DNA from: a virus
Virus record (IMG/VR): IMGVR_UViG_3300032782_000006
Location: 13,568-77,567 of that record
Direction: 5' to 3' (one strand)
DNA length: 64,000 nucleotides
Made by a program: the position numbers and the translations under genes. Shown piece after piece: positions 4,156 through 63,395 of the stretch (positions are counted from its first letter, which is position 1; each line of letters opens with the position of its first letter). Under the pieces are notes generated by a model. It worked only from the letters and a program-made list of their open reading frames with translations. It was not told where the DNA came from and ran no database searches.

Positions 4156-7100
4156 AGGATTTCCACCGTCCGAGATGAATTATAAACTGTATAAGATCTT
4201 TGTAATTCTGATACATATACTGTTTTTTGAGTGGTATAAATAGAAAATGATCGATGTATTGTAGAAACTTCTACTGTTTTTGGAATTGAATAAATTAAAA
4301 CTGTAAGAGGCTCAATATATTTTATATGTTTCCAAGTAAAACGAGCACTAGAAATACCAGATCCTAACCCTGATCCAGATATGTAACAAATTTCAGTGAC
4401 GTAACTAGTTTCAGTTCCAACTCCAGATACTACACTATGGAAAGGAGTAGTAATCTCAGCATCTGAAACTGAAGATCCTTGACCGTCACAAATACTTGTT
4501 ACAGAATCTAAAATTGATCCTAATCCAGAACTAGACCCGTACCCTTCAACTGAACTATATATAAAAGTAGAATTTGTGAGGATAGAAGTTTCTGATCCAG
4601 ATCCTGAGTCTGTACTAGATACAAACTTGATCAAAGTTGGAGTTGCAGTAGCTGAACCAGATCCAGATTTGGAACTTGAGATATGATCAAATATAGATTC
4701 AGTTGCAGTTTCTGATCCAGACCCAGTCACCGTACTTGAAATCGGCTTTAAAATAATCAGATCAGCAGTTTCAGAACCCTGACCAAGCGAGGAACTGTCG
4801 ATATGATCAAATAAGGATATGGTTGCTGACGCAGATCCAGTACCTAATTCAGTACTGTAAACTTCTTCTCCAGCCGCAGAACTTGTACTAGAATACCCAT
4901 ACCCGTAAACTGTACTCACTAAATAATCAAAAAGGTAATCAGTTGCAGTTGAAGACCCTATACTTGACGAAACTGAACTGGTTAAAGATAAGAATAAAAG
5001 ATTGTCCGCTGTTGATGAACCAGATCCTGTTACAGAACTAGAAACCGTTACAAGTATGTAACTAAAACTTGTTACACTCCCAGTCCCAGATTCAGAACTG
5101 TCGAGGTAATCAATTAGATAGTCATCTGCTACAACGCTCCCAGGGCCCCCTAGAGCCTCGCTGACAAGAGCTAGGATACCGAGCACATTACAGGTCGCAT
5201 ATCCTATCCCTGAGTCAATGGTGCTCGTGAGAGATAGGTATAAAGTATTGTTAGAAGTGGATGACCCCGTCCCAGATTCAGAACTGGAAAGGATTTCAAA
5301 AATGTAATCATTTGCTGTTACATCTCCAGATCCAGAGGTCAAACTATCTAACTGATCAAATAAATATCCAGTTGAGTTTGAAGATCCAATCCCGTCATAA
5401 GAAGTGCTAGTAATTGGGAGAAGTATGGAATTGGAACAAGATTCACTTCCTACCCCATCTGAACAAGTACTGGACAAATACTCAAAAATGTAACAATTTA
5501 CTGTTACAGATCCTGACCCAGATCCTGAACTATCTATTGCTAAGTATAAAGTATTTGTAGCAGTTGACGATCCTGAGCCGGTAGAGGAACTTTCAAGATA
5601 ATCAAACAGGTAATCATCAGCAGTTGCAGAACCGACTCCGACTTCATAACTATAAATTGCGTTTTGAGATTCACCACTTGTAGAAGAATACCCTGAACCA
5701 AACACATAACTTTCAAGGTAATCAAACAAGTAATCATCAGATGTTACAGACCCTGCACCATCAGTACATGAACTTGAGACCGGAATCCCAAGGAAATTAG
5801 TAGCTGTGACACTCCCAGATCCAGACGACTCTGAAGAGATCGAGAGTTGTAAAGTATTATCAGCTGTAAAATCTCCAGAACCAGACGACGTACTCTCTAA
5901 TATATCAAACAAATAATCGTATGCTGAAGATTCACTCGAACTACTTACCAAACTTGTGATATATTCTAGAATATAAGCTATTGCTGAAGAGTCACCTGAT
6001 CCAGATACTACACTTGAAACTAAACTGGATTGAGCAGTTCCAGACCCTGATACAGAACTATCTAAATAATCAAATAGATAATCATCGGCAGTACTGCTCC
6101 CAGAACCAGTTACTATACTTGAATATGGATTTAGAGATGAATCCCCATATCCAGATACCGAACTGTCAATTGCAATGTTCAGAGTATTATCTGCTAAAGA
6201 ACTTCCAGATCCGTCACATATACTGTTGACAGGATTTGCAGTTGAAGACCCCAATCCTGAGACCGAACTATCAATGATTACTAATAAAATAAGATTTACA
6301 GTTGAAGACCCTGAGCCGATTTCTGAACTGAATACCATATCGTCTGTAATTTCTGTTGTAGACGAAATTCCAGTTCCAGATACTGAACTGTCTATGTAAT
6401 CGAAGATGTAATCATTTGCAGTTACATCTCCAAAACCATCAGTACAAGAACTGGATATTGCGAGATTCAATGAATTAGTTGCTGTAAATGACCCTGAGCC
6501 TGAGACTAAACTATCTATAAACTCAAATACATAATTTGTACAAGTGGTATCTCCAGATCCAGATACTTGACTATCTATATTATCAAAAATGTAATCATTT
6601 GCTGTTACAGATCCTACGCTATCTGAACAGGTGCTTGATAAATCAACAGTAGTACTACCACTAGAAATTGTAAGATTTGCAGTGGAATCTCCAGCTCCGT
6701 CCGAACAAATACTCGATAATAATACAAAATTAAGAGTAGTATTACTAGCAGTAGAATCTCCTGTCCCATCTGAGCAAGTGCTGGAGATTGAGATTTGAAG
6801 AGTATTATTTGCAGTAGAATCTCCAGATCCAGAAACAAGACTTGATGATACAGGTCTAAACCGTATTGTAGAAATAAATCTACCGTCTACTCCTTGTGAA
6901 TTACCATCATTTGAACAAAGTCGACCCTGGATTGTAATAGAACCTGCGGAAATAGATTGACCATAAGCAATGAATAGACCGCAATGACTACCTGGACTAC
7001 AACTCTTTGAAATCACTACATCTGATGAATATATATTAAATCCATAACCTATACCCACAGAAGTTGACATACTAGTTGTAGAAATAGTAGTCCCAAGTAC

Positions 7101-17513: not shown

Positions 17514-18533
17514 TTAAGCTACCCCCGATTTGTCGATTCTCACACGAGTCCCACGGAGTATTGTTTTTGCAGCCTCAATTTCAGCTCGAGGGTCACCCTC
17601 TTGGTTTGCAACATATGTGCTACCCTGAACTTTGGTTTCTACAACTGGTGGAATACGTCCCCATTCCTGGTTCATCTCCAAAGTCAGACTCAAGGATTTG
17701 TCAGGATCATTGAGATCGTCAAACCTAGACTCAAACTTCTTCCGAATTCCTTCAGGGTATGAATTAAAAATCGCCTGGTTAAGCTCCAGTTTTTTAGCTT
17801 TTTCAATCTCGTCAAGCTGGTTGTTGAGTTTTTCAATAGCTGACGTCTGGTTAACAATAAGCTCCTGCTGTTCAGCTATTATCTTCTTAGAATTATCTAA
17901 TTCCTGATTCAGAGTCAGGATTACCTTCTCTTTTTCTACCAAAGCATCCTGATTTGTTTTGAGGAGAGCATTGGCATACTCTAAAGAAGTTGGTTCTGTG
18001 GTACTAATCTCAGTGGTTGACATAATAGTCTCCGTCGAGTCTTGATTGATAATTAACGCCGCTTGCTCTCCCTGTGGGATGTTGGAATCTCTTGGGTAGA
18101 TAAGCAAGTGATCAAAGTCAAAAGAAGAAATGTGTGGAGTTGTGGGATCACGCCAATATGCATCTGAAATAAAAACTTTACCTTGTTTGATCAGGTCTTC
18201 AATTTCAGGATCGGTGATATTGATTTTAGCTCGAAGTTTAGGTCGCCCTATACTATCGATCCATGCATCACCCATCGTTCCCACTGATTTGATTTCCTGA
18301 CTAAAAATGGATTCAGGATCTTTGCCTTTAAAACCACCATCAGGATGCGTGATAGAAAATGGAATAGGTTTGCCTGGAATAGTTGACAGTCCTGCCTCTA
18401 TCCCTGGGATATCATCGTCGTCCAAAACTTGAAGAACTACCTCATGTTCTGAAACAAACTCGCCAGTGTTTTGAATAAGTACTTCGCTCACGTTTTTGGA
18501 TCCAATGTAACGTTTTTTAGAATAGCGATTCAT
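17514..18533 (-). CDS. Prohead protease-scaffold fusion
   Basis: N-terminal GKPIPFSITHP...FDHLLI region followed by a long coiled coil; first gene of the capsid operon. Confidence 0.6.
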   Translation of the reverse strand: MNRYSKKRYIGSKNVSEVLIQNTGEFVSEHEVVLQVLDDDDIPGIEAGLSTIPGKPIPFSITHPDGGFKGKDPESIFSQEIKSVGTMGDAWIDSIGRPKLRAKINITDPEIEDLIKQGKVFISDAYWRDPTTPHISSFDFDHLLIYPRDSNIPQGEQAALIINQDSTETIMSTTEISTTEPTSLEYANALLKTNQDALVEKEKVILTLNQELDNSKKIIAEQQELIVNQTSAIEKLNNQLDEIEKAKKLELNQAIFNSYPEGIRKKFESRFDDLNDPDKSLSLTLEMNQEWGRIPPVVETKVQGSTYVANQEGDPRAEIEAAKTILRGTRVRIDKSGVA

Positions 18534-18845: not shown

Positions 18846-18953
18846 TTGGAGAACAACCTATTTCCGCAAGGTTACGCAGGCCAGAGCGCGGGCCGACTCA
18901 ACTTTGGATAATGTAGAGGTACCACGCCCTACAATATCCATAATACTCTCCAA
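18846..18953 (-). ncRNA. Structured ncRNA candidate A, loop CGUGGUAC
   Basis: Closing stem TTGGAGA/TCTCCAA, extended by G-U pairs only on the minus strand; three internal hairpins; no ORF. Confidence 0.6.
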
Positions 18954-21519: not shown

Positions 21520-21972
21520 TTATAATTTGCAGCAGTTGCATGTCTTAAGCGAGCATTCGCAAGAGCATTCGATGTGTTTTGGTTTTGGAGTAGGTTTGTA
21601 TTCTCCAGATTCTATACAGTATTTTGCTCCAGGACTATACGGAAGTCTAGGAGTAGTATCCGCTAGTTTGTGATGGATTGGTGAATCCTTATTGGTTGTC
21701 ACTGTCACGCTAATGGTCTGGCCCGCTACAACCGTGACACTAAGGTTTCCCACTACGTTTCCGTTGTAAACTACATTAATAGTGCAGGGTCCAGCTTTTA
21801 TTGTAGCTGAAAATGAGCCGTCGTTTGATTGAGTATCATATACAATATTGTTGTCAGGGTCCATAATTTGTATCTCGCTGTTTGTGAGTGCCGTCATTCC
21901 ATCGGCAAATAAAGCTGAGCCAGTAATCGTTCCATTCACAGCGGGCAATGGCACATCCCAAGGAAGCACCAT
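21520..21972 (-). CDS. Carboxypeptidase-regulatory-like beta-sandwich protein with Cys-rich tail
   Basis: GTITG...DGSFS...V.AGQT.SV pattern; C-terminal CSCECSLKTCNCC. Confidence 0.5.
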   Translation of the reverse strand: MVLPWDVPLPAVNGTITGSALFADGMTALTNSEIQIMDPDNNIVYDTQSNDGSFSATIKAGPCTINVVYNGNVVGNLSVTVVAGQTISVTVTTNKDSPIHHKLADTTPRLPYSPGAKYCIESGEYKPTPKPKHIECSCECSLKTCNCCKL

Positions 21973-22409
21973 TAAACCAGTGGAGGAATATGATCAGGAT
22001 CGTCTTCAACTTCGATTATTTCTTCATAAGGAGTGTACGTTATCGGAGATTTTACTGAGATCCCATTTTCGTTAACTTCTTCATAGAGTAACATAAGTGA
22101 CTCTTCGTCTATCACAAAACAGCGCTTTGTTGAATCTTCCATAATCCAATTATTTGGAAGGAGAACGTGATGTTGACCATTAGATAATTTATAAGGCATC
22201 TCCACCGATACATCATCTTTAGACAATTGATTTAGCCAGAACCTGGTTTTATCTTCAGGAGAGTGAAACATAGTTAAGAACCCGTCTTCCATTCCTGGTT
22301 TGTATCTACGGGCTAGGTAAACTTCTTTAAACCGTACTTTCATCTCGTCTACTTTGATGTCGTCGCTTGGAGGCCTAAATGGATTGAGTTTTTGAACTCT
22401 TATTTGCAT
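21972..22409 (-). CDS. Hypothetical protein preceded by the conserved leader
   Basis: ATG 22409 follows GGAGATTGTACCAC. Confidence 0.65.
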   Translation of the reverse strand: MQIRVQKLNPFRPPSDDIKVDEMKVRFKEVYLARRYKPGMEDGFLTMFHSPEDKTRFWLNQLSKDDVSVEMPYKLSNGQHHVLLPNNWIMEDSTKRCFVIDEESLMLLYEEVNENGISVKSPITYTPYEEIIEVEDDPDHIPPLV

Positions 22410-22463
22410 GTGGTACAATCTCCAATATTTATAAAAAAAATAAAAAGGATGGGGATCTAGACA

Positions 22464-23601: not shown

Positions 23602-25023
23602 TTATTGGGTTTTATAATGCTGTTCTTCATTCGTAACTTCATCAGGAGTCATTGATTTCTGTCGAGTATATTCTGTAGGGTCTTGGGGTTTTTGAGTAGA
23701 ATCGTCTTTGGGAAGTTCAGTACTAGATTGTTTTAGCCATTCCCATTCTGCTCTCATCTCTTCAAGTTCTTCGGGAGTTTTTGGAGGGAGTCCCAGCAAC
23801 ATTCTGTACTCGTTGATATCAATAACTTCGATTTCCGCTGCGCCTTGAGCGCGTAACTGATCAAGCACTCCGTTCTTGAATTTACGAGGTGGAAATTCTA
23901 TAGAGATGGAATAGTCAAGGTATCCGTTGTATTCAAGTACTTTTTGAAGTAAGGGAGTGAACTGTTCGACGATGTGTCCTTGCATTCCGCTAATGAACGA
24001 ATCCAATAACTCTGCCTTGGCTTCGTCCGAACCACCCAGCAATGCTCCATCGGTAGCAATGAAATCTGCTGGGGAGAAATAACTGGAAAAGAAGTTGTTG
24101 ATTCTAATGATTGTGTTAATCGCCATATCATTAACAGTCGCCCCTACTTCTACTACTTTGAAATTTGAAGGAATTACAAAATTGTTATTTTTAGACCAGT
24201 TTGAAACTATACTTTTAGCAAGCTCGATATCCCCGGGTCTTGGATTTTCTACCTGGATGAAAATTGAAGGAGCCCCTACTCGATTTACAGATTGCATTTG
24301 AGCAGTCCAAGCAAACTCAGATCGTTGAAACCAAGGAACTAGATTAAAGAATAGAGGAAGGCCAACAACATCATAATCGTGACTAGGTGGTCTAAAGTGA
24401 GTAACAGATCCAAGTTCGAAGGGTTGTCCAAGATAGTTTGTTTGATAATAGTGAATTGACATATCTTCCACACGGAATACAATCCCAGGAAGAAGAAGAC
24501 CGAGAACGTCCTGTGGAGCATAAATCACCGAAATATTTTTCCAAGGTACCGCCCGGAAAGAGGCTGCCGGTAAGTCCCTAATCATTTTTAGTTCCCAAAA
24601 TCCGTCATCTGCTTGATCAATAACGTAATTGATAACGTACGCATCAAAACAAAAACAGTCTAGGGCTCGATGCATCTGTTTATAAAGAGCAACTTCTTTA
24701 GTTTCACACATTTTTGTGAGACGTAAAGCAAGATCTTCATCTTTGTTACCATCTTTATCTGTAACTTTGATCACAGGAGGTTTGGGAGGTAACACCAGAT
24801 TGATCAATTTTAGTGCCAAACTTGTAGCTTCGGCGTTATTCCGAAGCTTCATCATTGTAACAATCGTAGTATCTTTATTTTCCCATTGGACAGACTGGTT
24901 TGGGAATATATAGACATATCCTTGTTCATAAGTAGGTGCAGCGGCCTTTTTTTTTCCCGATCCAGGAGGTCTACCTCGCCGCCTGGGGAGCATTTGTGCC
25001 ATTGCATTAGTTTTATTGATCAT
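23602..25023 (-). CDS. Portal protein
   Basis: 473 aa; GLPL..., IDINEYRMLLGLPP C-terminal portal motif; conserved leader upstream. Confidence 0.8.
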   Translation of the reverse strand: MINKTNAMAQMLPRRRGRPPGSGKKKAAAPTYEQGYVYIFPNQSVQWENKDTTIVTMMKLRNNAEATSLALKLINLVLPPKPPVIKVTDKDGNKDEDLALRLTKMCETKEVALYKQMHRALDCFCFDAYVINYVIDQADDGFWELKMIRDLPAASFRAVPWKNISVIYAPQDVLGLLLPGIVFRVEDMSIHYYQTNYLGQPFELGSVTHFRPPSHDYDVVGLPLFFNLVPWFQRSEFAWTAQMQSVNRVGAPSIFIQVENPRPGDIELAKSIVSNWSKNNNFVIPSNFKVVEVGATVNDMAINTIIRINNFFSSYFSPADFIATDGALLGGSDEAKAELLDSFISGMQGHIVEQFTPLLQKVLEYNGYLDYSISIEFPPRKFKNGVLDQLRAQGAAEIEVIDINEYRMLLGLPPKTPEELEEMRAEWEWLKQSSTELPKDDSTQKPQDPTEYTRQKSMTPDEVTNEEQHYKTQ

Positions 25024-25389
25024 TTGTGGTACAATCTCCGTTTTTTTACGTTGTAATAAGTGGTATTTACGGTTATTTAACCATATTTCAAAATCACTAA
25101 ATAGAGGATTTATTTTGAATTTATTTGGGGATTTTCCGCATTTTTAGAGTTTTTTTAAGGATTTTCGGGCATTATTTGGCTATTTTTTGCCATTTTTAAT
25201 CCATAATTTAATTAAAAGAAGGCATTATCAGGCGTCTTTTTCCATAAAATTGGATTATTTCCAGCATTTATTTAGATGAAACCTCTATATTTACCACTGT
25301 TTAAAGTTATGAAATCAGTTAAATCAAAGTTTATATGAGGACAGATACACTCTATTTTATAGATTTACAGCAAGTAGGGGGAGTATTCC

Positions 25390-39820: not shown

Positions 39821-42800
39821 CTATTTATCCAGGAAACCTTTCGATAAAAGGTCAAAGAATCCGTAAATATCTTTGTTCTGTAATAAAAGTTCTAGCTCTT
39901 CGCGGAACTTGTTCTCCTTGACGAAAATGTCACGATTGAAAATGATTTTATTAATCTCGTTTTGACACTCTAAAAGCGTCAAGCGCTTCTTGAGTTCCGC
40001 AACTTCTATTTGATTTGCGAGATCATAGTTAGTGCATTCTGCACAAACACATTTAGACAGACACATTCCTCCGGTAGTACCAGGGATCTAGAACGTCATG
40101 GAATTCTCTAAAGGTTTTTATTAGCCTAATCGAAAACTCTTCTTCTGACAAAATAGATGTATCTGCTATCATGGTACAATCTCAGTACCTAATTGATATG
40201 TCCCTGACCATATTTAAAACTATTCAAACAGTCATTATCCAGTGGGTATCCTTCCCTACCAGGGCTTTAGCCCACCACGTTTTCCATTTTGCCAGAATAT
40301 TAAGAACAATATCACAAAGTATAAATTCTTGCAAAAATAACATAGTACTATTGGAGAAGTACCACATTATCGTCACAAAAATTTAAGCTTTGACGATTTT
40401 GCGCTCTAAGCCTAGAGATTGTTCCACCAATCTCTGGCTTTTCCATTCACTGACAGTATTTCCTAATTACCTATTTTCTGAATAATAACCCCATCCTTCG
40501 TCATGAGTATACAATTTAAATTGTTTATAATTAATATTTGGAGAATCAGGTTCATCAATAGACGAATATACTCCTAAATTACTAATCCAAACCGCAGGCT
40601 TTTTACTATCCACAAATGGATAATCTGTTCCAAACGATATCCAAACCATTTTTGGAGTTTGTTTTATCATTCTCTCCTCTTCACATTCAGGGATTAGGTT
40701 CCCAAACTTAGTCTTCATTTCAAAAAGAAATTTATCAATTTTTGAATAAGTCTCATTCGATATATTGTCGTCCTCAAACGGATCATAAATTCGTTTTCCA
40801 TTTTGGTATACTTCATATTCCAGGAACAGTCTATCAATCGATATTGCATATCGAGTAACTAATTTTATACCATCATCTAACAATAAATTGTAATCAATAT
40901 TGGGTATATTTTCTAAATTTATCATAATTTAGTTCTCCATTTCCGTTACAAATCGGATTCTTTAGTTACATGATAACTAAAATCTACAAGCTCATCATAT
41001 GCACGATTATATGTTGCATATACATTCTCAGAACTTAACGGGGAATAACACTCATTCCTACAGTCTAAATACGTTTTTACCTCGTCAATTAGCTCTTGCA
41101 ACTCTTGAATAAAATCTAAAACGTCTTTTTTATCAAGCCCTTGATCCAAATATGACATTTTATATTCTCCTTTTTTAAAAAGTATCAATTTTATATGTTT
41201 TGAAAACAAAAATGTAAAAACCTGCGATCAGTATCACAAACTTCATTATAAACTCGTTCTACATCAAACTCAAGATTTACATTTTTGAAAGCTTTAATAT
41301 ACAATTCAAAAAAATTGAACGCATCTTTCTCATCATCCAGATTCCCTACAAATCCCAATATTTCATTCGCGATATCCACTTCATTTATTCCATTGTTTGT
41401 CATTTATGCTCAGCTCCGTTGTTCTAAAAATTAATAATAGTAGTTTATTCATCGTCAGAATCAAGCTCTGTCTCAAAAACCTTCAATTCGGGATATTTAT
41501 CTAGCAATTCCCAACTTTCCGAACGTGCAATCTGCGCAAATGCAAATTCGTCTGAAACTACTTCTCCATAATCACGATCCCCTTCCCATTGAGAAGTAAA
41601 TATCAGCACAAACTTTTTTGATTTTTTAAGTTTAGTCAACCCTAGATGTTTTCCAGTTCCACCGTTCGTATAATTACGTCCATCCCAAATATCTAGGTTA
41701 GAATTTGATTTTACACGAGCAACCACATTACCATCATTATCATAAACATTTACCATTTGTATCAGCCTCTTTGTCCAAAATTAATATTTTTGTGTTCTCC
41801 TTTAATCTTATTTCTTACAATACCTACTATGTCTGCAAAATATATAAACTTTTCGGAACAATATTTAATAAAGAATCCTTCCAAAATAAATTTTCAAAAA
41901 AATAAATCTTTAAGGAATTTTATGAACCTAAAAACGATAAGTAGTAATCCGACAGGTTGATAACAACAACCCATCGGTGACACCGCTATCTCAAATTTCG
42001 CACAAAATCCGATGATACCAGATATAGTATTTTTCCAAACATACTACTCTTTTCTACATTATAAACATTTCCTATTTTATCTATGTAATAATTTGGATTT
42101 ATTACATAGGTCACATCCGTACAATATTAATCATTCCCCAGTTACGTTCTTTACATATTCCAGCATCAATCTCATATTTTCATGCAACTGCTCTATAATT
42201 TCTACCCAAGATTTGGCCTCTCCTAAAAACCATCCATAGTCTTCATTATATAGTAAAAGTCGATTATCTGAAGAAAACCCATAAACTTGATACTCCATAG
42301 GATAAACCATTCCAGGATTGTTATCCCCAAGTCCATATTTAGTCCGAGTTCGTAAAAAATTACCCCTATCTGTCTCTTCATTCAACTTTTCTACAAATTC
42401 TTCGTCAATTACATAATTAGTAACTACCATAATCAAACTCCATGATCAATATTCCCAAGACTCATGATATTTTCTACTAGCTGACCTTACTCCTAAAAAT
42501 TCTTTAACAATTCCATCAGCTACAGTATGAGCCCAATCTATAAAGTTTTCTTGGGTTTTATACACTTTTTTATGTTGACCCTCTTCGATTTCATAGTTGA
42601 AATACATTCCGTCCTCGTCTTCATCAAATTCGTCAAGCGTATTTTCAATAAAAAAAGGAACGTACCCCAACTGCTCCAAATAATGTGACCGGATGGCTTC
42701 TTTAGTACTCATTTTGCATCATAAAATAGTATTACCATCCAAATTATAAACTGATCTTGATCTTACTTAAAATTTATTTAAAGTTTTTGAATACTATAAC

Positions 42801-45863: not shown

Positions 45864-47412
45864 AAGCTAATTTTAAAAATTGTTCATATAACGGATCAGA
45901 AGACTTGATTTTTACAGTATGAACTTTACCATCTTCTTTGATATCTACGGTAATTTCTTTATAAGTGAGTTTCCTGTATAGTTCCTCAAACGAAGTTCTA
46001 CCATTCAAACAATCATCAATTTGTTCCGAACTTGCATGATCAGTTACATACTTCAGTTTTTTATATTGATCCTCAGTAATGTTCAATCCATTCTTAGAGA
46101 CTTTAGGAATATCTTTTTTCTTTTCAGTGACCTCTGCTAACTTTTCTCTAAATTGAGTAATAAACTCATAAGACACATTCGCAATTTTAGCCAGTTCATA
46201 ATTCACAAATTCTTCGCAACCTCGATGATATTCGGGCAACTTTGTCTTTTTGAGAATAGGTAATAGTTTTACAGCCAGTTCTGCTCTCTGGAGTTCGGTT
46301 AATTTTTTATGGCCAATCTCATTTTTAACTATCCAAATACATACATCTGCTCTGCTCGGAAACTGTTTCTCTACAAAAGTAAACGATTTATTCTCTTTTT
46401 TACAAATCTGATAATGTTCGATCCCATCAATTATGATTTCATTAACTGCTCCATTGATAGGATCAACTTCTTTCCAAATTGTAAAAATATAATCGCAACC
46501 TCTAGACTTTATATCATCCGCTAACTCTAACGTCTCTTGGTTAGATAAGGGTACCCTAAATCTATCAAAGACTTTATCTATTATAAAATTTTTGGGGACT
46601 AAAGTAACTAATTCGAGTTCTACTCCTTTTGGAGTTTCTTTAGGAGTTTCAACCTCAGTTTTAGATTCGTTCCTCCAATCCTCGATCAGTTCTTCCAATG
46701 GCATTTTTTTGCATTCGCATTTACAATTTTTCAAATCGACTTCTTCCCAATCCCCTTTGAGTTTTTGCTGTTTCAGTACATTATGGAGTGTAGTAATCGC
46801 AACTTCTCCCTGTCTAGCTTTATTTACAATATTCTCAGGGACAAATTCCAAAATCTTTTTTACACGAGTAAGAGTGATATCAGACAACCCTACAATTTTA
46901 GAGATCTCTTTGTAAGAATTGATTTTTATAAACTCTCTCTTTATCTTGTCCATTGCCTCTAGCCAATCCGCTTTTGCAATTAGATAATCTTGAGACTTTT
47001 CTTTCCCGTCTTTCTCAAGTTTAGTCATTTTGGTTTTTGCCAGTCTTTGTTTAGTAATCCAATCCTGGGCTTTCTGCTGTTCTTTTACAGCTTGTTTATG
47101 AAAAATAGGGTACAATTTCAGCGCGAGTTCGCAGTTTTGGAATGGAGTTAACTCATGGGTTTCCATGTAATTTTTTACAATCCAAATCATTGCGTTATTT
47201 CTCGACTGGAACGTCTTTTCTTTAGTCGGAGGAATTATTCCTAATCTGGTACAAATCTCAAATCGTTTATGACCATCAACTACAATTCCCTTCCAAACGA
47301 TCAATGGGTTTTTAATTCCATTGGAGCGGATGTCTTGCTCTAACGCTTTCATCTCATCATAAGAAACAGAAGGAAGTAATGCTTTAAACTCTTCATCAAT
47401 TTTTAAATCCAT
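45850..47412 (-). CDS. Protein with two tandem ParB/Srx-like domains
   Basis: IDEEFKALLP...GIKNPLIVW..IVVDGHKR, and a degenerate second copy IDKVF...IIIDGIEHY. Confidence 0.75.
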   Translation of the reverse strand: MDLKIDEEFKALLPSVSYDEMKALEQDIRSNGIKNPLIVWKGIVVDGHKRFEICTRLGIIPPTKEKTFQSRNNAMIWIVKNYMETHELTPFQNCELALKLYPIFHKQAVKEQQKAQDWITKQRLAKTKMTKLEKDGKEKSQDYLIAKADWLEAMDKIKREFIKINSYKEISKIVGLSDITLTRVKKILEFVPENIVNKARQGEVAITTLHNVLKQQKLKGDWEEVDLKNCKCECKKMPLEELIEDWRNESKTEVETPKETPKGVELELVTLVPKNFIIDKVFDRFRVPLSNQETLELADDIKSRGCDYIFTIWKEVDPINGAVNEIIIDGIEHYQICKKENKSFTFVEKQFPSRADVCIWIVKNEIGHKKLTELQRAELAVKLLPILKKTKLPEYHRGCEEFVNYELAKIANVSYEFITQFREKLAEVTEKKKDIPKVSKNGLNITEDQYKKLKYVTDHASSEQIDDCLNGRTSFEELYRKLTYKEITVDIKEDGKVHTVKIKSSDPLYEQFLKLACGVE

Positions 47413-47527
47413 CTAGAGCCCTCCTGATAACATCATAGAGAGGTTCTCGATCATATAATTTTAAACCTACAATTCGTGAATGAAGTTCTGAGGGTATCGT
47501 AATTATCTTCTTATCAATAATTGCCAT
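47396..47527 (-). CDS. RHH-type microprotein
   Basis: MAIIDKKIITIPSELHSRIVGLKLYDREPLYDVIRRAL; leader-like GGAGAGATTTAGTACC upstream. Confidence 0.55.
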   Translation of the reverse strand: MAIIDKKIITIPSELHSRIVGLKLYDREPLYDVIRRALDGFKN

Positions 47528-47597
47528 GGTACTAAATCTCTCCTAAATTATACAGAGATCCTGATTACTTTATGCTTTATAAACTTATAGTATATTA

Positions 47598-50689: not shown

Positions 50690-50731
50690 ACTCTTTTCTT
50701 TTTAAACATTTTTTATTGGAGATTGTACCAC

Positions 50732-51484
50732 ATGTCTAGTAATGATCACTTTGTTAAATGCGGATTTGTTTTTGAAAGTTCAGTTTGGAAAAAACAGTTA
50801 TCGGATAAGATGATTTTGATCCGAGACCCTGCAAAAAGATCATGGCAAGTAGATATGATTACATCGGAAGGGAATGTCAACGTTATCCCCTATAGTCGAA
50901 TCAAAGACGATGAAATCAAAGATATTGTTGACAAAGAAATCCATGCAGTCAACGAATTGTCAAATGCAGAGCTGATGAAAGATGTCAAAACCATCGAACC
51001 TTCTGAAGATATTACAAAATGCACTGAGATTGTTACGTTACCTGCTCCCGTTGGGGTTTCAGGTATTGTTAGGCCGGCGGTAACTAAAGCAGAAGCAGTT
51101 GCGGCTTGGCACGAGTTTCAATCTTTAAAATCTGCTATTCTCTCAAGATCAGATCTTCAACATATTTCAGGTCGAGACTATGTAAAAAAATCCGGTTGGA
51201 GAAAATTAGCTACGTTTTACAATCTAACAGACAGAATTGTTGAAGAACGTCAAATCCCGTTAGACAAAGGAGATTATTACTGGAAAATAAAAGTTGAATG
51301 CACTGCTCCGAATGGTAGAGTTACAGAAGGAGTGGGGATCTGTGCTAGTACAGAACGTAAATTTTCCCACCCTGAACATGACATCTATGCTACCGCTCAC
51401 ACCAGGGCCAAGAACCGCAGCATCTCGGATATGATCGCTGCTGGTGACGTGTCTGCGGAAGAGTTGGGGGAAGGGGGTCTTTAA
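50732..51484 (+). CDS. Putative ssDNA-annealing/recombination protein
   Basis: YVKKSGWRKLA...EGVGICAS...ATAHTRAKNRSI resembles viral Rad52/Sak-like annealases; conserved leader upstream. Confidence 0.5.
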   Translation: MSSNDHFVKCGFVFESSVWKKQLSDKMILIRDPAKRSWQVDMITSEGNVNVIPYSRIKDDEIKDIVDKEIHAVNELSNAELMKDVKTIEPSEDITKCTEIVTLPAPVGVSGIVRPAVTKAEAVAAWHEFQSLKSAILSRSDLQHISGRDYVKKSGWRKLATFYNLTDRIVEERQIPLDKGDYYWKIKVECTAPNGRVTEGVGICASTERKFSHPEHDIYATAHTRAKNRSISDMIAAGDVSAEELGEGGL

Positions 51485-52066
51485 ATTCCATTTGTAAAAA
51501 ATTGTGAAATAAAGACATTCTCTCATGATGACGCAGTTTGGTTAGCTGGATTTATGGATGGGGAAGGAACTTTTTCAATAAATCAACGAGTTAGTAAATA
51601 TTCAAATGGGGATCCAAACTATAATTATACTCCTACGATTTCTGTTATAAATACTGATTTATCCACAATCAAATATATTATGGAACTATGGGGATTAAAT
51701 AAATATCACTCATATATCCGCGAAAAAGACCATCCCTGGAATAATACATATAAAGTCTATCTCAATGCTTTAGTAAATTGCCAAAACGTTTTGACTCAAT
51801 TAAATCCTTTTTTAGTTACTAAACGGGAACAAGGACAATTATTATTACAATTTGTTTTGTCTCGACTAAAAAACATGAAAGGATCCTCTATCCCTCAACG
51901 TACTCCATATTCAGAATTTGAATATAGTACCTATTTAAAATTACGCGAATTGAACTATAGGGGGAGTAAAAAACGTATCCCCTTTACCGAGTACCAGTTT
52001 ATGAGGGATATTGGAAACTATTCTACAGAAGAATCAATTGTATCTCCCGAAGAGGTATATTTATGA
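51485..52066 (+). CDS. Free-standing single-motif LAGLIDADG endonuclease
   Basis: WLAGFMDGEG motif begins upstream of ATG 51554; PFLVTKREQ. Confidence 0.85.
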   Translation: MPFVKNCEIKTFSHDDAVWLAGFMDGEGTFSINQRVSKYSNGDPNYNYTPTISVINTDLSTIKYIMELWGLNKYHSYIREKDHPWNNTYKVYLNALVNCQNVLTQLNPFLVTKREQGQLLLQFVLSRLKNMKGSSIPQRTPYSEFEYSTYLKLRELNYRGSKKRIPFTEYQFMRDIGNYSTEESIVSPEEVYL

Positions 52067-52254: not shown

Positions 52255-52413
52255 TTAAAATTTTTCAATACCATTCTATTTTTGTAGAGAGTAATTATAA
52301 GTATTTTATATACCTACTATATATTGTGCAGTATGTTAAGTATACACTACTGTTAGTATAAGTAGCTATATATCCGCAATTGGTAAAAGATATATACTAA
52401 GAGGTGAGTGTAT

Positions 52414-52551
52414 AGTATGTCAGGCGCAATTTGTTCTTTTGTTCCATTAGCGATATTAGACGGTAGTATACCTACCTATCTATCAAAACCGCAATGGCGG
52501 GCCGTGGTACGCTCGAAAATAATCTCAGAATGTGATTGTGCCTGACGTACT
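52414..52551 (+). ncRNA. Structured ncRNA candidate G (three-way junction), loop CGUGGUAC plus unpaired AAUCUC
   Basis: 17-bp closing stem 52414-30/52535-51 with two G-U pairs; inner stems CCATT/AATGG, GGTAG/CTACC and CGGGC/GCTCG; BRE/TATA AAAAGATATATA near 52385. Confidence 0.7.
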
Positions 52552-53027
52552 CATACATTAGCTTAATAGTATGCTGGATATCTCAAATGCAAACATATCC
52601 ATTTTTTAGCTATTTGGAATCCGAGCACAATCCTCTAATTATTTCCTCATTGCTTATAAATATATATATCTTGGGTAAATGATTTTTAGAGAGTTGGGGG
52701 GCATAAATATAATTGGGTTGGTGTCCACTCTACTATTCAAATCATTATACCGAAGACGATTTTTGTTTAAATTATGGATGCGCTTTTGGTCAAACTTTAA
52801 AACGTTATAGGACTATATATGTTTATCGTAGATTATTATAGTTGTAATGTTAGAATGTTATAGTGATGGTATAATATCCTCATTGACGTGAATAATACTC
52901 ATTATCTTAATAAAAAAGAGAACAAAAGTTATATACATTGGAATCGTTTTTGAAAAATGCGCCAGATTTTGACTATGAAGAGCATCATTTCGGTTTTTCC
53001 ATTTTACCTCTATGATGCTCTTTTAGA

Positions 53028-53261
53028 TCAATGATGCCAATTTTTAGCGTTTTTAGCAAAATTTGCGCGTTTTTTAAGTTGGCCTGTCACTGTGATACTT
53101 TTACCATTAATGTTTACTTTAGCTCCTTTTTTTGCATTCACAATTTTAGACAAATCTCCAGCAGGAATTTTTTTATCGGCTTCAATCCCTAAAGATTCGT
53201 GTAAAGCTCCTTTGTTTTTTGGGTTGAGATGGATAGGCGATTTTCCTTTAGCTGCAGCCAT
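53028..53261 (-). CDS. Small basic phage-type protein
   Basis: KNKGALHESLGI..DKKIP...KKRANFAKNAKNW, a pattern I recognise from phage hypothetical proteins. Confidence 0.65.
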   Translation of the reverse strand: MAAAKGKSPIHLNPKNKGALHESLGIEADKKIPAGDLSKIVNAKKGAKVNINGKSITVTGQLKKRANFAKNAKNWHH

Positions 53262-53266
53262 TGCAC

Positions 53267-53383
53267 TCAGTCCTCGCAATCGCCGCCTTTCTTCCCACCT
53301 TTTCCTTTTCCACCTTTTCCTTTACCATTATTGTTTTTACCGCGATTCACAGGTTTACCATTAACCGTCTTACCTTTAGCCAT
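53267..53383 (-). CDS. 38-aa Lys/Gly-rich peptide
   Basis: MAKGKTVNGKPVNRGKNNNGKGKGGKGKGGKKGGDCED; TATA about 25 nt upstream. Confidence 0.6.
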   Translation of the reverse strand: MAKGKTVNGKPVNRGKNNNGKGKGGKGKGGKKGGDCED

Positions 53384-53429
53384 GATAGTAAATATTTATA
53401 AACAGATCATATAAACTTTTTGATCATAG

Positions 53430-53573
53430 TTACTTGGATTTTTTCCCGGCTTTTTTAGCATCTGATCCAGATGGTGTGATTGCACTTCCGGGTAGAGGCT
53501 TGGATTTCACGGGATTAATATTTACTACTGGTTTTTTCCCATTCCCCTTTTTTGAAGACTGTGGACTTGCCAT
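53430..53573 (-). CDS. Lys/Pro/Ser-rich peptide
   Basis: MASPQSSKKGNGKKP...KKAGKKSK; TATA upstream. Confidence 0.55.
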   Translation of the reverse strand: MASPQSSKKGNGKKPVVNINPVKSKPLPGSAITPSGSDAKKAGKKSK

Positions 53574-58322: not shown

Positions 58323-61300
58323 TTAGATCATCCTATGGGCATCTTGGTATCTCAATGTGACTTTTACAGACATTCTGTTTACCGTTGATCCTATTCCTGG
58401 CATGGTCATCAGGAATGTGTTATTAGTAGGTTGGTTGGTTATCTGAGTTCCATCTGCTAGATTTTGAGGGCCACCTACCAATATCTGAGGAATTTCAGCA
58501 TCGATTGTCACGATGTCAGTATAGAGATAAATCGAATTTATAATACAGCTAGGATTCCCCCAAATCAGTACATAAAACTGAGTCTGGCCTTTTAAAGACA
58601 TGTTCGCTGCATTGTCTAGTTCTACACAATATGGATAAGCACAATTTGGAGCAGACGTAGAATTCATATCTACCGGCCACCAAACCGATTTGTTCACTCC
58701 ATTTACGCATACGGTAGTATATATTGTACTTCCATTAACGGTGAATCCACATCCAAAACTACTATAATTTGTACCGTTATTTCCTCCTCCACTTACTAAA
58801 GTACCTGTTCCTGTTCCAGCTGGGACCGCTGCTGAAATCCCACAGTTTGCAGGTGCAATATATACATACGGATTCCCACTACACAAATCTAGTTGGAGAT
58901 ACGGAATCCCAGTTATAGGATATCGTGTGTCAAAATAGTAAATTACCCATCCATTTGATGCAAGAGTTAGCAAATTGATAACGGAGTTTTGGACTGGGAT
59001 ATTTGGATATGTTGTAGTCATTCCAGACATGGTTGCGTTTACATCGTACCAGGATATTGTTTGGTATGTGATATTTTGGAGACAGTCTTTATATTCAAAA
59101 GATCCGGTACCATCATTATTAATTGCAATCGACATTCCAGGGTATAACTGATTACTCAATTGTAATATTTTTAAAGGATCTGCCTGATTCCAAATTTGAA
59201 CACCTAATGACGGAGTATTTAAAGCACTCCAATAAATATCAGTAACACTATAACTCGGATTCATCCAAAACGCTTGACCCGTAGTGATACTACATTTTCC
59301 CCAAAATCGAATCCTAATTTCTTGATTTCTATCTATATGGGTTATGTATGGATTAGTCGATTCTAAAAACCAAGTTACATCATCATTACATGTCCGTGAC
59401 CATGTAGAAATTGTTGTAGTTGATAGAGGGTTGTTCCCATCAGAAGAACTATAAACACTATACTCGACGTATGTAGTGACTGTACATCCATGCACACATC
59501 TATGCCGAATACCACAATGATCTATTCGATATCTTCTCCACCCATCCGCAGGCCACAATCTATATTCCTTTATTAAAGTATAAGTTGCAGTCGTATATGA
59601 AATTTGATAATTATCAAGAGCAGCAGTATTAAACCCTTCAGTCCATAATGCAGCACTACATTGCTGCATATTTGTAGCTTCCACATATATGTTTGGAGTA
59701 ACATTCACTGTTCCAGTAGTGGTAATATTGGTTCCAATAAGTGCGTCATCATATTGGTGACCAGGCTGGAGAGATACAAAATCTATCATACACCAGGAAT
59801 TACTTGGCATCACTCCACCATTAGAAACATCCCCTCCAAATATTTTTACTTGTACAAAAGGTTGGCTCGTTGAAAAAGTGTAGGTATCTGTTAATGTAGT
59901 CCAGTTATATACTCCCGAATTGCCTGTATATTGATTACTCATTAATAACGCGCCATCTGTATCATATATATTTATAAACGCAATTGCAGTTCCCATATTA
60001 TATGTTGCTGCACATGATGTCAATATATATGGAATATTTGGTTTTACTTGTACAAATTGTTGAATCCCCCCAACTTTATTAGTGGTTCCATCTCCATTCA
60101 GTCCAAAAGATAATTTATTAGGATCTTGAATTCCAGGTGATCTCCATAATTGACTTCCAAACCATCCTGCTACCACACTCACGTCCCAATTTGTAGGTAA
60201 CCAAGGCCAGTCAGAACCAGCATTTTGATACCAACAATGAAAATCTCCATTATTAATAACATCTTCAGCTAACGAATCATTAGATATCCACGACCCTCCA
60301 GGGAGCCGGTCTGTCAAAATTTTAGTCCGAACTGTAGGAGTCATGGATTGCATGATAGGTTTGTCTGCAATAAACAAAACATTGTATGGATACGCATTTT
60401 GAGGGACTAAAGTAGAAAGTTTGATATCAGTAGAATGGGATGCACATATCCCCGTAATCCCCCAACCTGTGTATATTCCTCCCAATTCGAGTACTGATAA
60501 TCCAGTCACTTGAGAAGGAGTATAAAATGCTTGTATTACTTGTCTCATTTCGTTTAGAGAATAGGAATAACAGTCTAGAGTAACGTCACATCCTTCAAAC
60601 CCAAAATCTTCTATACAAAACCCGTCTGTTCCTGGCGGATGTTCTTGAGCAATCGACTTTTTAACATTTATTTTCTTGTTTTGCCATCTAAATGGGTATC
60701 CATTGATGTATGCGCTATATCCAGGGATATAATAATTTTTAGCAGGATTTGGCATATAACTTACTGGTGGCACATAAGGTTGGACTGAGGCTACGACTTG
60801 GTAATCGTTAACGCTAGTGATCCCATAATAGTTCTCGTTATTGTCTGCAAGTACATTATTTAACATTACCAACGCCATTTGAGTAGGGACTAGGTTACAA
60901 CATCCACATCCAGACCAAGCATATCTAAACGCCGGATTGTAATGACATCGAGTGTGACAAATATTGTTGTTAGTGAAATAAACCGTTTGACTACAACTCA
61001 CCGGAGCAAAATTAACTAAAACTCCAGCATGGAAACAGTTACTAACAGAGTTTGAATAAAATCTGGCTCCATTAAACCCTTGTAAACAGACCCCACAATT
61101 GTAATCAATTACAGTAGATCCTCCACAAAACTGAACCTGATTTGTATAAAACAGTAAATTTTTGTTTGGTTGAGATGCTCCGTTTCCAGTTTCAGAAATC
61201 ATGACCCCAACTCCATAAATATTGAGGATCACGTTTAAAAACATCACAATATTTACAGAAACTCCAGAATCATCTATAACTATAATTCCATGTTGAGTCG

Positions 61301-63347
61301 CAGCGGTGGAATTATTTGCACCCAATGCTTGTTGATCAGAAGAAAGAGTATTATTGGGGTCTACCCAACCAGTAATATAGTTGTTATTAATTGTTACATT
61401 TGCACAATCATAAATTTTTATTCCGCCTATAATCCCATCCGAGCGACCTGAAACTGTAATATTGTTGCTAAAAATAGATGCTCCGAGAGTGGCAGGTGGC
61501 GTTAACCCTAGATTAGGTACACATGATAACAAACATATACAAGAACAAAAAGTAAGGGAAAATACATTGTTTTGGATAATTATGTTAGACCCTTGACCGA
61601 CATAGATCCCAAATCCTACTAAATTTGTAATTTTAAGGTTATGTACATTCAAATTATTTATGCTAGCAAAAACAATTCCGCTTAGTTGATATCCCGGATA
61701 GAATGTAGCTGGATTTGCAAGATTTGCTTTGTTCCCATTGATTTCTCCGCCATAGATCTCTACATTTTGGATACTTGCAGAAGAATATAGCATGGCCTTC
61801 CCACTAGGGAAATTTGCTACACTCGGATTAGGGTTTAAAAGTAGTTTTGTAGAGTTATCCATTTTGATGATAGTAAAACTATACACGATCAATGGACTCT
61901 GAATATCGTAAGTATACCCTCCAGGAAGATATACTAAAGCCATATTAGTAGCAGAAGGTCCTAACGAATTTGCATAGGCTAAAGCTGCGTTTATTTGGAC
62001 ATCATCGTTCATCCCATCACAAACATAAGTTTGTTTTAGAACCCCCATCGATGAACTCGTAGCTCCAAGGAATACTGAAATTGTAATTTGGATTACCGAA
62101 AATAAAGTATTATTTGCAATTGCAACTCCAGTACCTGATACTATACTTGCTAAATGACCTGGGAATGTAAACCAAATTGCAGCCAAATATCTAGCAGTTA
62201 CAGCACAAGAACTTCCATTCACATTTAATGCATATCTTCCATTAATTGTGTATGGAGTTCCGGCAGTAACTGTCATTCCATACGCCACTACACAACTTCC
62301 GGCACCATTATTGATAGGAAGAGTATACCTACTTTGAGCATAATCCGTAGAATTTATGTTAACTCCATAATATATCCCAGAACTTGGAGATGCAGTTATT
62401 ACCTCTGCTTTTGCTAAAACTAATAATTCTGTTTGATATGAAACCGGAGTTAAACTTGTAGTCACACTTGGTTCATTTACAAGAGATGTGGTAGAAGGAG
62501 TATTACCGGTTGTACTATCTAAGTAAGATGTAATTTGTGTAGTATTTGCATCAAAAAACAGGATTGCAAATGCGCTTTTACTAACTGTGACTGTCCCCGC
62601 AAACTGTGCATAAACCATTCCACCATATGTATTAGTCCCTGAAATCCCCGTAATTGTTGCAAATGTAGTAGCTGAATCTGCAGCATTTGACGCATTTGCT
62701 GCTTGGAATGCTGACATCCCAGGAATAGCCGCCATTGAGGCTCCAACCCCAATAGATACTCCTTTTCCTTGGGTTATTTCGGTGGTTCCCGTTGGATTAT
62801 TGGTAGCATAATACATTGCTAATGCAGTAGCTGGACCGGATGGAGTGACGGATACATCTACATTTCCATCCATAGTATAAGCTTGAGCAGAATATGTTTG
62901 AGAAGTAGAGTTTTCTAGATATCTAAACTCGTCTCCATTAAATACATACACCAATAATGTACGGTTACTAATAACTACAGTCCCAGTCGTGTTTGTAGCA
63001 ACCAATCCGGTTACAGTATGTGATCCACTAGCAAGAGACCCTACCCAAAAACAACAGTTACGATTTGGACCAGTTGCGGCATACTGACTACAATACATTT
63101 GAGAGTGAACAGCTGATCCAGAAGTACCATCAATTCCGATAGCATTTGAAAAACCAGTAGTTACCCCCGCATCTGACGGTCCAGCATTGGCGTTATATAT
63201 TACCAAAACTGTTTGAGTTGCAGAAAGAGAAAAGGTTTTAGTTGGAGGGTTAGATGAGGGGTTATCTGCAACCAAAGTAGCACTGCTCGTGCTAAAAGCA
63301 GTAGTACTTTGGACTACATATTTAGTATTTATTGTAAGTAACGTCAT
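58323..63347 (-). CDS. Distal-tail-type multidomain protein: shared ~390-aa domain, disaggregatase-like beta-helix, Dit-like and CBM-like regions
   Basis: Immediately after the tape measure gene; YVCDGMNDDVQINAAL; PbH1 repeats; INNGDF...IDFVSLQ resembles a carbohydrate-binding module. Confidence 0.7.
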   Translation of the reverse strand: MTLLTINTKYVVQSTTAFSTSSATLVADNPSSNPPTKTFSLSATQTVLVIYNANAGPSDAGVTTGFSNAIGIDGTSGSAVHSQMYCSQYAATGPNRNCCFWVGSLASGSHTVTGLVATNTTGTVVISNRTLLVYVFNGDEFRYLENSTSQTYSAQAYTMDGNVDVSVTPSGPATALAMYYATNNPTGTTEITQGKGVSIGVGASMAAIPGMSAFQAANASNAADSATTFATITGISGTNTYGGMVYAQFAGTVTVSKSAFAILFFDANTTQITSYLDSTTGNTPSTTSLVNEPSVTTSLTPVSYQTELLVLAKAEVITASPSSGIYYGVNINSTDYAQSRYTLPINNGAGSCVVAYGMTVTAGTPYTINGRYALNVNGSSCAVTARYLAAIWFTFPGHLASIVSGTGVAIANNTLFSVIQITISVFLGATSSSMGVLKQTYVCDGMNDDVQINAALAYANSLGPSATNMALVYLPGGYTYDIQSPLIVYSFTIIKMDNSTKLLLNPNPSVANFPSGKAMLYSSASIQNVEIYGGEINGNKANLANPATFYPGYQLSGIVFASINNLNVHNLKITNLVGFGIYVGQGSNIIIQNNVFSLTFCSCICLLSCVPNLGLTPPATLGASIFSNNITVSGRSDGIIGGIKIYDCANVTINNNYITGWVDPNNTLSSDQQALGANNSTAATQHGIIVIDDSGVSVNIVMFLNVILNIYGVGVMISETGNGASQPNKNLLFYTNQVQFCGGSTVIDYNCGVCLQGFNGARFYSNSVSNCFHAGVLVNFAPVSCSQTVYFTNNNICHTRCHYNPAFRYAWSGCGCCNLVPTQMALVMLNNVLADNNENYYGITSVNDYQVVASVQPYVPPVSYMPNPAKNYYIPGYSAYINGYPFRWQNKKINVKKSIAQEHPPGTDGFCIEDFGFEGCDVTLDCYSYSLNEMRQVIQAFYTPSQVTGLSVLELGGIYTGWGITGICASHSTDIKLSTLVPQNAYPYNVLFIADKPIMQSMTPTVRTKILTDRLPGGSWISNDSLAEDVINNGDFHCWYQNAGSDWPWLPTNWDVSVVAGWFGSQLWRSPGIQDPNKLSFGLNGDGTTNKVGGIQQFVQVKPNIPYILTSCAATYNMGTAIAFINIYDTDGALLMSNQYTGNSGVYNWTTLTDTYTFSTSQPFVQVKIFGGDVSNGGVMPSNSWCMIDFVSLQPGHQYDDALIGTNITTTGTVNVTPNIYVEATNMQQCSAALWTEGFNTAALDNYQISYTTATYTLIKEYRLWPADGWRRYRIDHCGIRHRCVHGCTVTTYVEYSVYSSSDGNNPLSTTTISTWSRTCNDDVTWFLESTNPYITHIDRNQEIRIRFWGKCSITTGQAFWMNPSYSVTDIYWSALNTPSLGVQIWNQADPLKILQLSNQLYPGMSIAINNDGTGSFEYKDCLQNITYQTISWYDVNATMSGMTTTYPNIPVQNSVINLLTLASNGWVIYYFDTRYPITGIPYLQLDLCSGNPYVYIAPANCGISAAVPAGTGTGTLVSGGGNNGTNYSSFGCGFTVNGSTIYTTVCVNGVNKSVWWPVDMNSTSAPNCAYPYCVELDNAANMSLKGQTQFYVLIWGNPSCIINSIYLYTDIVTIDAEIPQILVGGPQNLADGTQITNQPTNNTFLMTMPGIGSTVNRMSVKVTLRYQDAHRMI

Positions 63348-63395
63348 TGTGGTACAATCTCCGTTTAGGGTACAATCTCAGTTTTAGGGAGGGAT

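Follow-up and report, generated by a model that had tools for sequence, protein, structure and literature searches.

The stretch of DNA analyzed here (the window, 64,000 nucleotides) comprises bases 13568–77567 of a complete 77,567-bp virus record in IMG/VR, designated G000, which has 127-bp direct terminal repeats and a GC content of 37%. Its plus strand carries at 52414–52551 the structured core of a candidate small RNA, with two predicted open segments that jointly match a short box located just before the start codons of a set of viral genes. This element is downstream of a gene for a 250-amino acid (aa) protein (50732–51484), and only a homing-endonuclease-like gene and a 63-codon open reading frame (ORF) separate the two. 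The tail and head genes are of the siphovirus type. The host probably belongs to the Methanosarcinales because the methylase gene has 69% DNA identity to Methanosarcina virus MetMV and a Methanosarcinales metagenome-assembled genome is the source of one 250-aa homologue.

The element was first described in an annotation made from the letters of the DNA (the initial annotation), and its sequence and coordinates are as given there. The plus strand of 52410–52555 folds with a predicted free energy of −51.3 kcal/mol (z = −5.19, 200 shuffles). The closing stem pairs 52414–52431 with 52534–52551 through 18 bp, counted initially as 17, that include two G·U pairs. The initial annotation used the G·U pairs to assign the element to the plus strand, and the minus strand indeed folds 5.7 kcal/mol worse (−45.6 kcal/mol, z = −4.6). 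The closing stem encloses a 5-bp helix (52433–37/52527–31) and two hairpins, a long internal one and a short one (52498–52515) that presents the loop CGUGGUAC at 52503–52510. The 11-nucleotide (nt) junction AAAAUAAUCUC at 52516–52526 is unpaired. Both the loop and the AAUCUC of the junction are open in the minimum-energy fold and in the centroid, as initially proposed, with ensemble probabilities of being fully unpaired of 0.48 for the loop and 0.54 for AAUCUC.

The flanks of the element have the features of a transcription unit. A promoter resembling the transcription factor B recognition element (BRE) and TATA box, GGTAAAAGATATATAC, was read from the sequence at 52382–52397 (+), in agreement with the initial annotation, and its predicted start is near 52417–52423. 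A terminator-like hairpin, GGATAT...ATATCC followed by T6, was read at 52576–52607 (+) and then folded. The promoter is closely similar to the boxes preceding the RNAs of related viruses described below, GGAAATAATATATAC in L002/L012 and GGAAAAAAATATATAT in L036, and these RNAs likewise end in T5–T6 runs. By these signals the element resembles a non-coding transcription unit of its own. It is single copy in the genome. The covariance models of Rfam 15, which we take to include the phage c4 family, returned nothing at the gathering score in the 64-kb window, and a scan for tRNA and tmRNA returned none.

The start box and its complement in the element

The box GAGATTGTACCAC has 10 matches with at most one mismatch compared with 0.08 expected (0 of 100 shuffles), which substantiates the conserved leader of the initial annotation. 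Its extended consensus is cTAAAAAcgGAGATTGTACCAC(a)ATG. The orientation is always gene sense, and nine copies are 0–2 nt upstream of the ATG of an ORF. The plus-strand copy at 50719–50731 is directly 5′ of the ATG of the 250-aa gene. Boxes on the minus strand precede a tail protein gene (box 1075–1087, gene 646–1074), the major tail protein gene (2094–2106, gene 1241–2092; the one-mismatch variant GAGATTGTACTAC), gene 21972–22409 (22410–22422), a 473-aa gene (25026–25038, gene 23602–25023) and a 39-codon ORF (40171–40183; variant CUGAGAUUGUACCAUG). Two further minus-strand genes have tandem boxes: a pair 23 nt apart at 2552–2587, with the proximal copy before the gene for a minor head/neck-like protein (2162–2551), and a pair at 63349–63379, with the proximal copy before a 1674-aa gene (58323–63347). 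The gene names of the initial annotation could be checked only in part. The major tail protein with its one-mismatch copy, the tail protein and the minor head/neck-like protein were recovered, but the 250-aa gene, labeled an annealase, had no Pfam match, no PHROG function and no PDB match, and a search of PDB with its family profile was also empty. A 17-mer form of the box gave one single match in viral contigs and nine single matches in unrelated bacteria (596 Gb of genomes), all at chance level.

Joined, the GUGGUAC of the loop and the AAUCUC of the junction are the exact complement of GAGAUUGUACCAC and the exact reverse complement of the box GAGATTGTACCAC, as the initial annotation had pointed out. 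GUGGUAC is complementary to GUACCAC, the 7 nt just 5′ of the start codon, and AAUCUC is complementary to GAGAUU, which overlaps the Shine-Dalgarno (SD) sequence GGAG; the junction segment AUAAUCUC can pair with GAGAUUGU. The split 13-nt complement is exact to seven identical boxes and near-exact to three others. The variants GAGATTGTACTAC and CUGAGAUUGUACCAUG are both single-base changes in boxes that adjoin starts, and both place a U instead of a C opposite a G of the loop; pairing is therefore kept as a G·U wobble. The reverse complement of the loop is found in six of 70 SD-preceded start regions and that of the junction in seven of the 70, and 52504 and 52521 are exactly the two positions of the element with the most frequent complements in start regions. 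The observation is confirmed for the box, the complementarity, the predicted fold and its predicted open segments. The initial annotation also extended the guide to AAUCUCAG to cover the CUGAGAUU variants. The complementarity is there, but the extra AG is paired in the fold and costs 4 kcal/mol to open.

The box is bipartite and is divided at the same junction as the guide. GAGATT and GTACCA separated by a gap of 1–2 nt occur three times on the minus strand compared with 0.035 expected: GAGATT-A-GTACCAC at 17999–18011, 10 nt past the ATG of a gene; a copy with 1–2 extra bases at 47247–47259 within a 520-aa gene; and GAGATT-TA-GTACCA at 47527–47540, overlapping the ATG of a 43-codon ORF. Widening the gap to 1–12 nt gives four occurrences, including the 10-nt gap of the element itself, compared with 0.125 expected. 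A two-part guide would tolerate bulges of 1–2 nt between the box halves.

Duplex energies were calculated for the guide and its parts. The loop alone forms a duplex of −12.3 kcal/mol and AAUCUC one of −9.1 kcal/mol, and the bipartite duplex is predicted at −15.6 kcal/mol compared with −21.9 kcal/mol for an ideal contiguous guide. When target accessibility is taken into account, the canonical boxes reach −9.8 to −11.2 kcal/mol, compared with a median of −6.5 (SD of the distribution 2.3) across 159 start regions. The best accessibility-weighted target of the element is the gapped box at 47527–47540 (−14.3 kcal/mol).

Anti-box hairpins in related viruses

Three other virus lineages have their own start box together with a hairpin that is complementary to it. 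The 52-kb virus G001 encodes a 250-aa protein 57% identical to that of the window, and its box GAACGGAGCAAA, in the fuller form aaaaaTAGAACGGAGCAAA..ATG, precedes ~14 genes. Downstream of its 250-aa gene, the first intergenic region contains on the same strand a three-hairpin RNA that is preceded by an GGAAATAATATATAC box and followed by a T5 run. The third of these hairpins is GC-rich and carries a 12-nt apical loop, UUUGCUCCGUUC, that is exactly complementary to the box and is the sole reverse-oriented box copy in the 52-kb record. A variant in L012/L019 is 82% identical to the G001 RNA and leaves the loop unchanged, and the stem differences are compensatory (C-G>G-C, G-C>A-U and A-U>G-U). 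The two variants also differ by indels of 4, 3, 2 and 1 nt, which rule out a coding frame.

The second lineage, G003/L036, is a complete 72.7-kb virus with a 250-aa gene 47% identical to that of G000 and ~17 genes preceded by (A/T)UCGGAGCUA 3–6 nt before the ATG. A TCGGAGCTAA box and its matching hairpin were derived for this virus. The same intergenic position holds a promoter, hairpins and T6, and a 9-bp plus 4-bp stem displays a loop containing UAGCUCCGA, an exact complement of the box and its sole reverse orphan copy. The first hairpin of this RNA (L036 8974–9011, +) contains a sense-like box copy, AUUCGGAGCU, paired with AAGCUC. An RNA holding both box-like and anti-box sequence could adopt alternative folds.

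The third lineage, G004/L074, is a GC-rich virus (65% GC) with eight genes preceded by the box AACGCGGGAG. It has a 13-bp hairpin with two G·U pairs and the loop UUCCCGCGU, which with its flanks is complementary to the box at 13 of 14 nt. This hairpin (L074 5094–5129, +) is ~4.9 kb upstream of the 250-aa homologue in a 740-nt intergenic region. A sense box copy lacking a start codon is located at 5303–5312 (+) in the same 740-nt stretch, 190 nt after the hairpin.

Box and loop differ in step between the lineages: GCA in the box is met by UGC in the loop where GCU is met by AGC, and AACGG by CCGUU where UCGG is met by CCGA. G001/L012, G003/L036 and G004/L074 all show this covariation in their counterpart RNAs; no relative found carries the box or the element of the window. 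In cross-pairing calculations the cognate box is the best partner for the RNAs of G000 and L036. The 250-aa gene is itself boxed in G000, G001 and G003, and the element occupies the same relative place downstream of it as the RNAs of G001 and G003/L036. When the 1.5 kb after the 250-aa gene was screened blindly with 8-mers, G001 (tail fraction 0.0004) and L036 (0.0002) stood out. The G001 and L036 RNAs cannot be aligned with each other.

No match to the closing stem was returned by an exact-word scan of viral contigs, and no relatives were reached through the homing-endonuclease-like gene or the major tail protein. Among 67 loci related through the methylase, none had the element or the box; repeated k-mers at these loci were considered as start boxes and rejected as palindromes and tandem repeats. 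MetMV has no standard box. No homologue of the 250-aa gene closer than 59% was present in a set of 5.8 billion proteins, where its homologues are encoded on roughly 250 contigs, and the more distant 250-aa-gene loci (L011, L015, L017, L020, L037–L042 and others) showed no clear box or anti-box. Matches in L038 and L063 were rejected because they are inside coding sequence. The small ORFs neighboring the element have no homologues in the loci of the relatives.

Proposed action of the RNA and alternative explanations

The element would be the gene of a small non-coding RNA of ~130–190 nt that starts near 52419 and ends at the hairpin and U6 at 52607, the version in this virus of an "anti-leader" RNA of related archaeal tailed viruses. 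The RNA would be transcribed from its own promoter. Its loop GUGGUAC would pair with GUACCAC just before the AUG, and its junction (AU)AAUCUC would pair with GAGAUU(GU) overlapping the SD. The two short helices would stack on the mRNA, and the 5-bp hairpin stem would remain closed. The SD and start codon of ~10 viral mRNAs would thereby be occluded from the ribosome, the targets being those for the tail, neck/head, 473-aa and 1674-aa proteins and the neighboring 250-aa gene. The outcome would be to set the timing or dosage of target translation, and the effect is most likely repression.

The case for an anti-box RNA is made by comparison: related lineages show their own box and matching loop, two of them at the same place. 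That viruses of this group use anti-box RNAs at all is judged probable. That the element is itself a non-coding RNA acting on the box is somewhat favored, and its role as a virus-encoded RNA that masks ribosome-binding sites is credible but unproven. The proposal of the initial annotation that one RNA serves all box starts fared unevenly. The pairing of a standardized box with an RNA is backed by covariation in the three other lineages, but a second, longer complement at 40325–40450 on the minus strand makes a single trans-acting RNA doubtful and probably too simple.

Several results weigh against assigning this role to the element. A duplex energy as favorable as −15.6 kcal/mol is also reached in 4.6% of the other windows of the genome and in 9.9% of Markov shuffles. 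A naive energy scan of the 159 start regions without accessibility did not rank boxed genes first, so the target scan suggested initially places boxed starts above the median with accessibility but not at the top without it. Predicted binding is modest rather than outstanding. Across the genome, hairpin loops show no excess of anti-box 7-mers (2 seen, 2.3 expected). Between the element and the RNAs of the relatives no sequence similarity is detectable, and only position, architecture and logic are common. The guide geometry also differs: in G000 it is split over a 5-bp hairpin and a junction, compared with a contiguous apical loop on a long GC-rich hairpin in the relatives. No close relative of the virus was found in the collections searched, and no related locus has the box or the element. 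The virus sequence is present in a single public sequencing run, a DNA run from a wetland metagenome that is possibly the source sample, and no RNA run is listed as containing it.

The alternative that best survives is a structured RNA or DNA element with another role, such as a small RNA of another kind, a hairpin used in replication or recombination within the 1.2 kb of AT-rich non-coding sequence, or a remnant linked to the homing-endonuclease-like gene just upstream (51554–52066). The split complement would then be coincidental and the true anti-box RNA would be a double hairpin at 40325–40450 (−). We regard this explanation as unlikely. In its favor, a genome is expected to contain 0.25 complete split matches with a gap of 1–30 nt and parts of at least 4 nt on either strand, the energy of the duplex is unexceptional, and the element lacks homology to the RNAs of the relatives. 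The 40325–40450 locus is in a gap between two minus-strand genes and folds far better on the minus strand (−43.1 kcal/mol, z = −6.4) than on the plus strand (−29.9 kcal/mol). Hairpin 1 (HP1) has the loop GUGGAA and a 3′ arm CAAUCUC, and hairpin 2 has the 5′ arm AUGUGGUAC and the loop UCUCCAAU, which together match the complement of AUUGGAGAUUGUACCACAU at 16 of 19 nt. The locus holds in addition a 12/13-nt anti-box copy and gives the best duplex with the box among all genome windows (−22.5 kcal/mol). Its box complement is longer than that of the element, and it fits the pattern of the relatives, a reverse orphan in a hairpin, at least equally well. A third structured locus at 18846–18953 (−) contains a 12-bp hairpin with a loop identical to CGUGGUAC and a 5′ arm, GGAUAUUGUA, that resembles the box; its overall fold is not significant (z = −1.6). 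The word CGTGGTAC occurs three times in the window compared with 0.45 expected. The virus may use several anti-box RNAs, or one of these other loci may be the real one.

Several points argue against coincidence. The match is in the intergenic region where two related lineages keep an anti-box RNA, and the expectation for a split match in this 1.2-kb region is only ~0.002. It is on the strand with the promoter, the terminator and the G·U pairs, it falls within the two segments predicted to be open, and it is split where the box itself tolerates insertions. The split match is unremarkable genome-wide and remarkable at this syntenic place; it exceeds chance only when this position and the gapped boxes are taken into account. 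Within G000 alone it would be a suggestive coincidence and weak evidence.

A protein could instead read the box, either a DNA-binding regulator or an RNA-binding translational repressor, and the reverse hairpin copies would then be additional binding or titration sites. The stoperators of Cluster A mycobacteriophages, which are recognized by a DNA regulator, and T4 RegA, an RNA-binding translational repressor, are models for such a reader. The tandem boxes at 2552/2575 and 63349/63367, where the distal copy does not adjoin a start, are compatible with a protein, as are the half-sites of the element, which are 10 bp apart or one DNA turn, and the GAGATTG/CAATCTC palindrome of HP1 at 40415. The comparable Start-Associated Sequences (SAS) of mycobacteriophages are also still open between RNA and protein (PMC3203893). 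However, the fixed distance to the ATG and the strict gene-sense orientation point to the mRNA level, and half-site gaps of 1–2 nt would shift the phase of a DNA site. The single reverse copy is, in four viruses, located in the apical loop of a hairpin with G·U pairs and compensatory stem changes that is flanked by a promoter and a T-run, none of which a DNA site needs. An RNA reader is favored over a protein because of the ATG spacing, the gene-sense orientation, the G·U pairs and the compensatory stems of the relatives, and a protein reader is accordingly judged improbable.

It is very improbable that the element encodes a small protein, alone or besides an RNA, with the fold as mRNA structure, because the 42-codon ORF (52417–52545, +; ATG 52417 to TGA 52545) has no homologue but itself among the 5.8 billion proteins, no Pfam or PHROG match and a start codon within the 18-bp stem, an open frame of this length is not rare in 37% GC DNA, the proximal TATA box would place the transcript start at or after the ATG and exclude the SD, and no ORF is conserved in the RNAs at the syntenic place in the relatives, where indels separate the two variants; these points outweigh the SD GAGGTGA 9 nt upstream of the ATG, which counts against a purely non-coding role, a TATA-like box at 52367–74 that could yield a leader including this SD, the promoter of the same type that drives a protein gene in L002, and the call of the ORF by a gene caller in another assembly (P0121).

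Relation to known systems and the surrounding sequence

The c4 antisense RNA of phages P1 and P7 and the CI RNA of satellite phage P4 are phage-encoded structured RNAs. Two separate exposed segments in these RNAs pair with two target segments around the ribosome-binding site, and guide and target differ in step between phages. The element resembles them in its candidate two-segment guide against the region of the ribosome-binding site. It differs from c4, which is processed from the same transcript as its target and acts on one operon, icd-ant, in temperate-phage immunity, in having ~10 dispersed targets in a genome where no integrase was found. A tyrosine integrase was not found in G000 and is weakly present in G003, and an immunity role is therefore not favored.

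The primary paper on sRNA41 and sRNA154 of Methanosarcina mazei is Buddeweg et al. (2018, doi 10.1111/mmi.13900). These are intergenic small RNAs that repress translation by masking ribosome-binding sites, and sRNA41 acts on several such sites within polycistronic mRNAs (PMC5867862). Like them, the element is a candidate trans-acting archaeal RNA with anti-ribosome-binding-site sequence in predicted exposed parts, and its host group is probably the Methanosarcinales too. Unlike these cellular RNAs, which act on the ordinary ribosome-binding sites of a metabolic operon, it would be a viral RNA directed at a standard box that is specific to the virus and reaches past the SD. Its guide is in two parts, and it has no known sequence relation to them and no Rfam match.

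The start box has a close parallel in the SAS of Cluster K mycobacteriophages, a 13-nt asymmetric box with an SD core that is located a few nucleotides before the ATG of 10–20 genes in one orientation (PMC3203893). Each K1 genome has one reverse-oriented SAS that is not tied to a gene start (PMC3203893). The function was left open in 2011 as "either RNA or protein" (PMC3203893) and was still open in 2025 (PMC12699233), and no RNA partner is proposed in either paper. The box of G000 has the properties by which SAS are defined: it is asymmetric, ~13 nt long, contains the SD core, precedes many genes in one orientation and is specific to its virus group. Unlike SAS, which belong to phages of a bacterial host and precede non-structural genes only, it also precedes structural genes and is 0–2 nt from the ATG. 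The Cluster K consensus GGGATAGGAGCCC is not matched by the box of this archaeal virus, which by analogy is an archaeal counterpart of SAS and not a member. In Mycobacterium phage Anaya (L151, JF704106) the lone reverse SAS at 59870–59882 (L151 39871–39883) is at the apex of a plus-strand hairpin (region z = −4.0) in the 385-bp gp96–gp97 gap, and the transcribed strand reads GGCCUCCUAUCCC. This hairpin could be an anti-SAS RNA. Stoperators, named in PMC3203893, are likewise 13-bp asymmetric sites repeated many times and oriented with transcription. They differ from the box in binding a repressor protein on DNA and blocking transcription, and they are not locked to the start codon as the box is.

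The element belongs to none of these families and is a new arrangement of a known mechanism. To our knowledge, very few cases of translational control by small RNAs have been documented in archaeal viruses. The literature library that was searched contained no description of a virus in which genes share a single start box and an antisense RNA matching that box is encoded. If correct, the proposal would describe a simple switch for viral gene timing in methanogen viruses and a portable pair of tag and guide for controlling translation in Methanosarcina genetics, and the covariation of box and loop across lineages suggests heteroimmunity-like specificity codes between related viruses. It would also supply a concrete hypothesis for the Cluster K SAS boxes, open since 2011 (PMC3203893, PMC12699233). 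A broader generalization is offered tentatively, as a possibility held with less than even confidence: boxes and virus-encoded anti-box hairpin RNAs would form a general translational switch of gene sets in tailed viruses of archaea and bacteria, box and loop would evolve in step as lineage-specific codes, a two-part guide would tolerate the spacing variants of a bipartite box, and the Cluster K SAS would be targeted by the same kind of RNA, as the lone reverse SAS of Anaya suggests.

The homing-endonuclease-like gene (51554–52066, +) matches PHROG 5046, "HNH endonuclease" (E = 6e-14), and weakly LAGLIDADG_1 (E = 0.005). It is inserted between the 250-aa gene and the element and is not at this place in the relatives. 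On the 3′ side of the element, 52608–53430 is ~800 bp of AT-rich sequence without a convincing ORF and with several TATA-like boxes, for example cttataaatatatatatc at 52653–52670. A second repeated word in G000, AAGTTTATATAT(TT), is present in 7–9 copies and resembles a shared BRE/TATA promoter.

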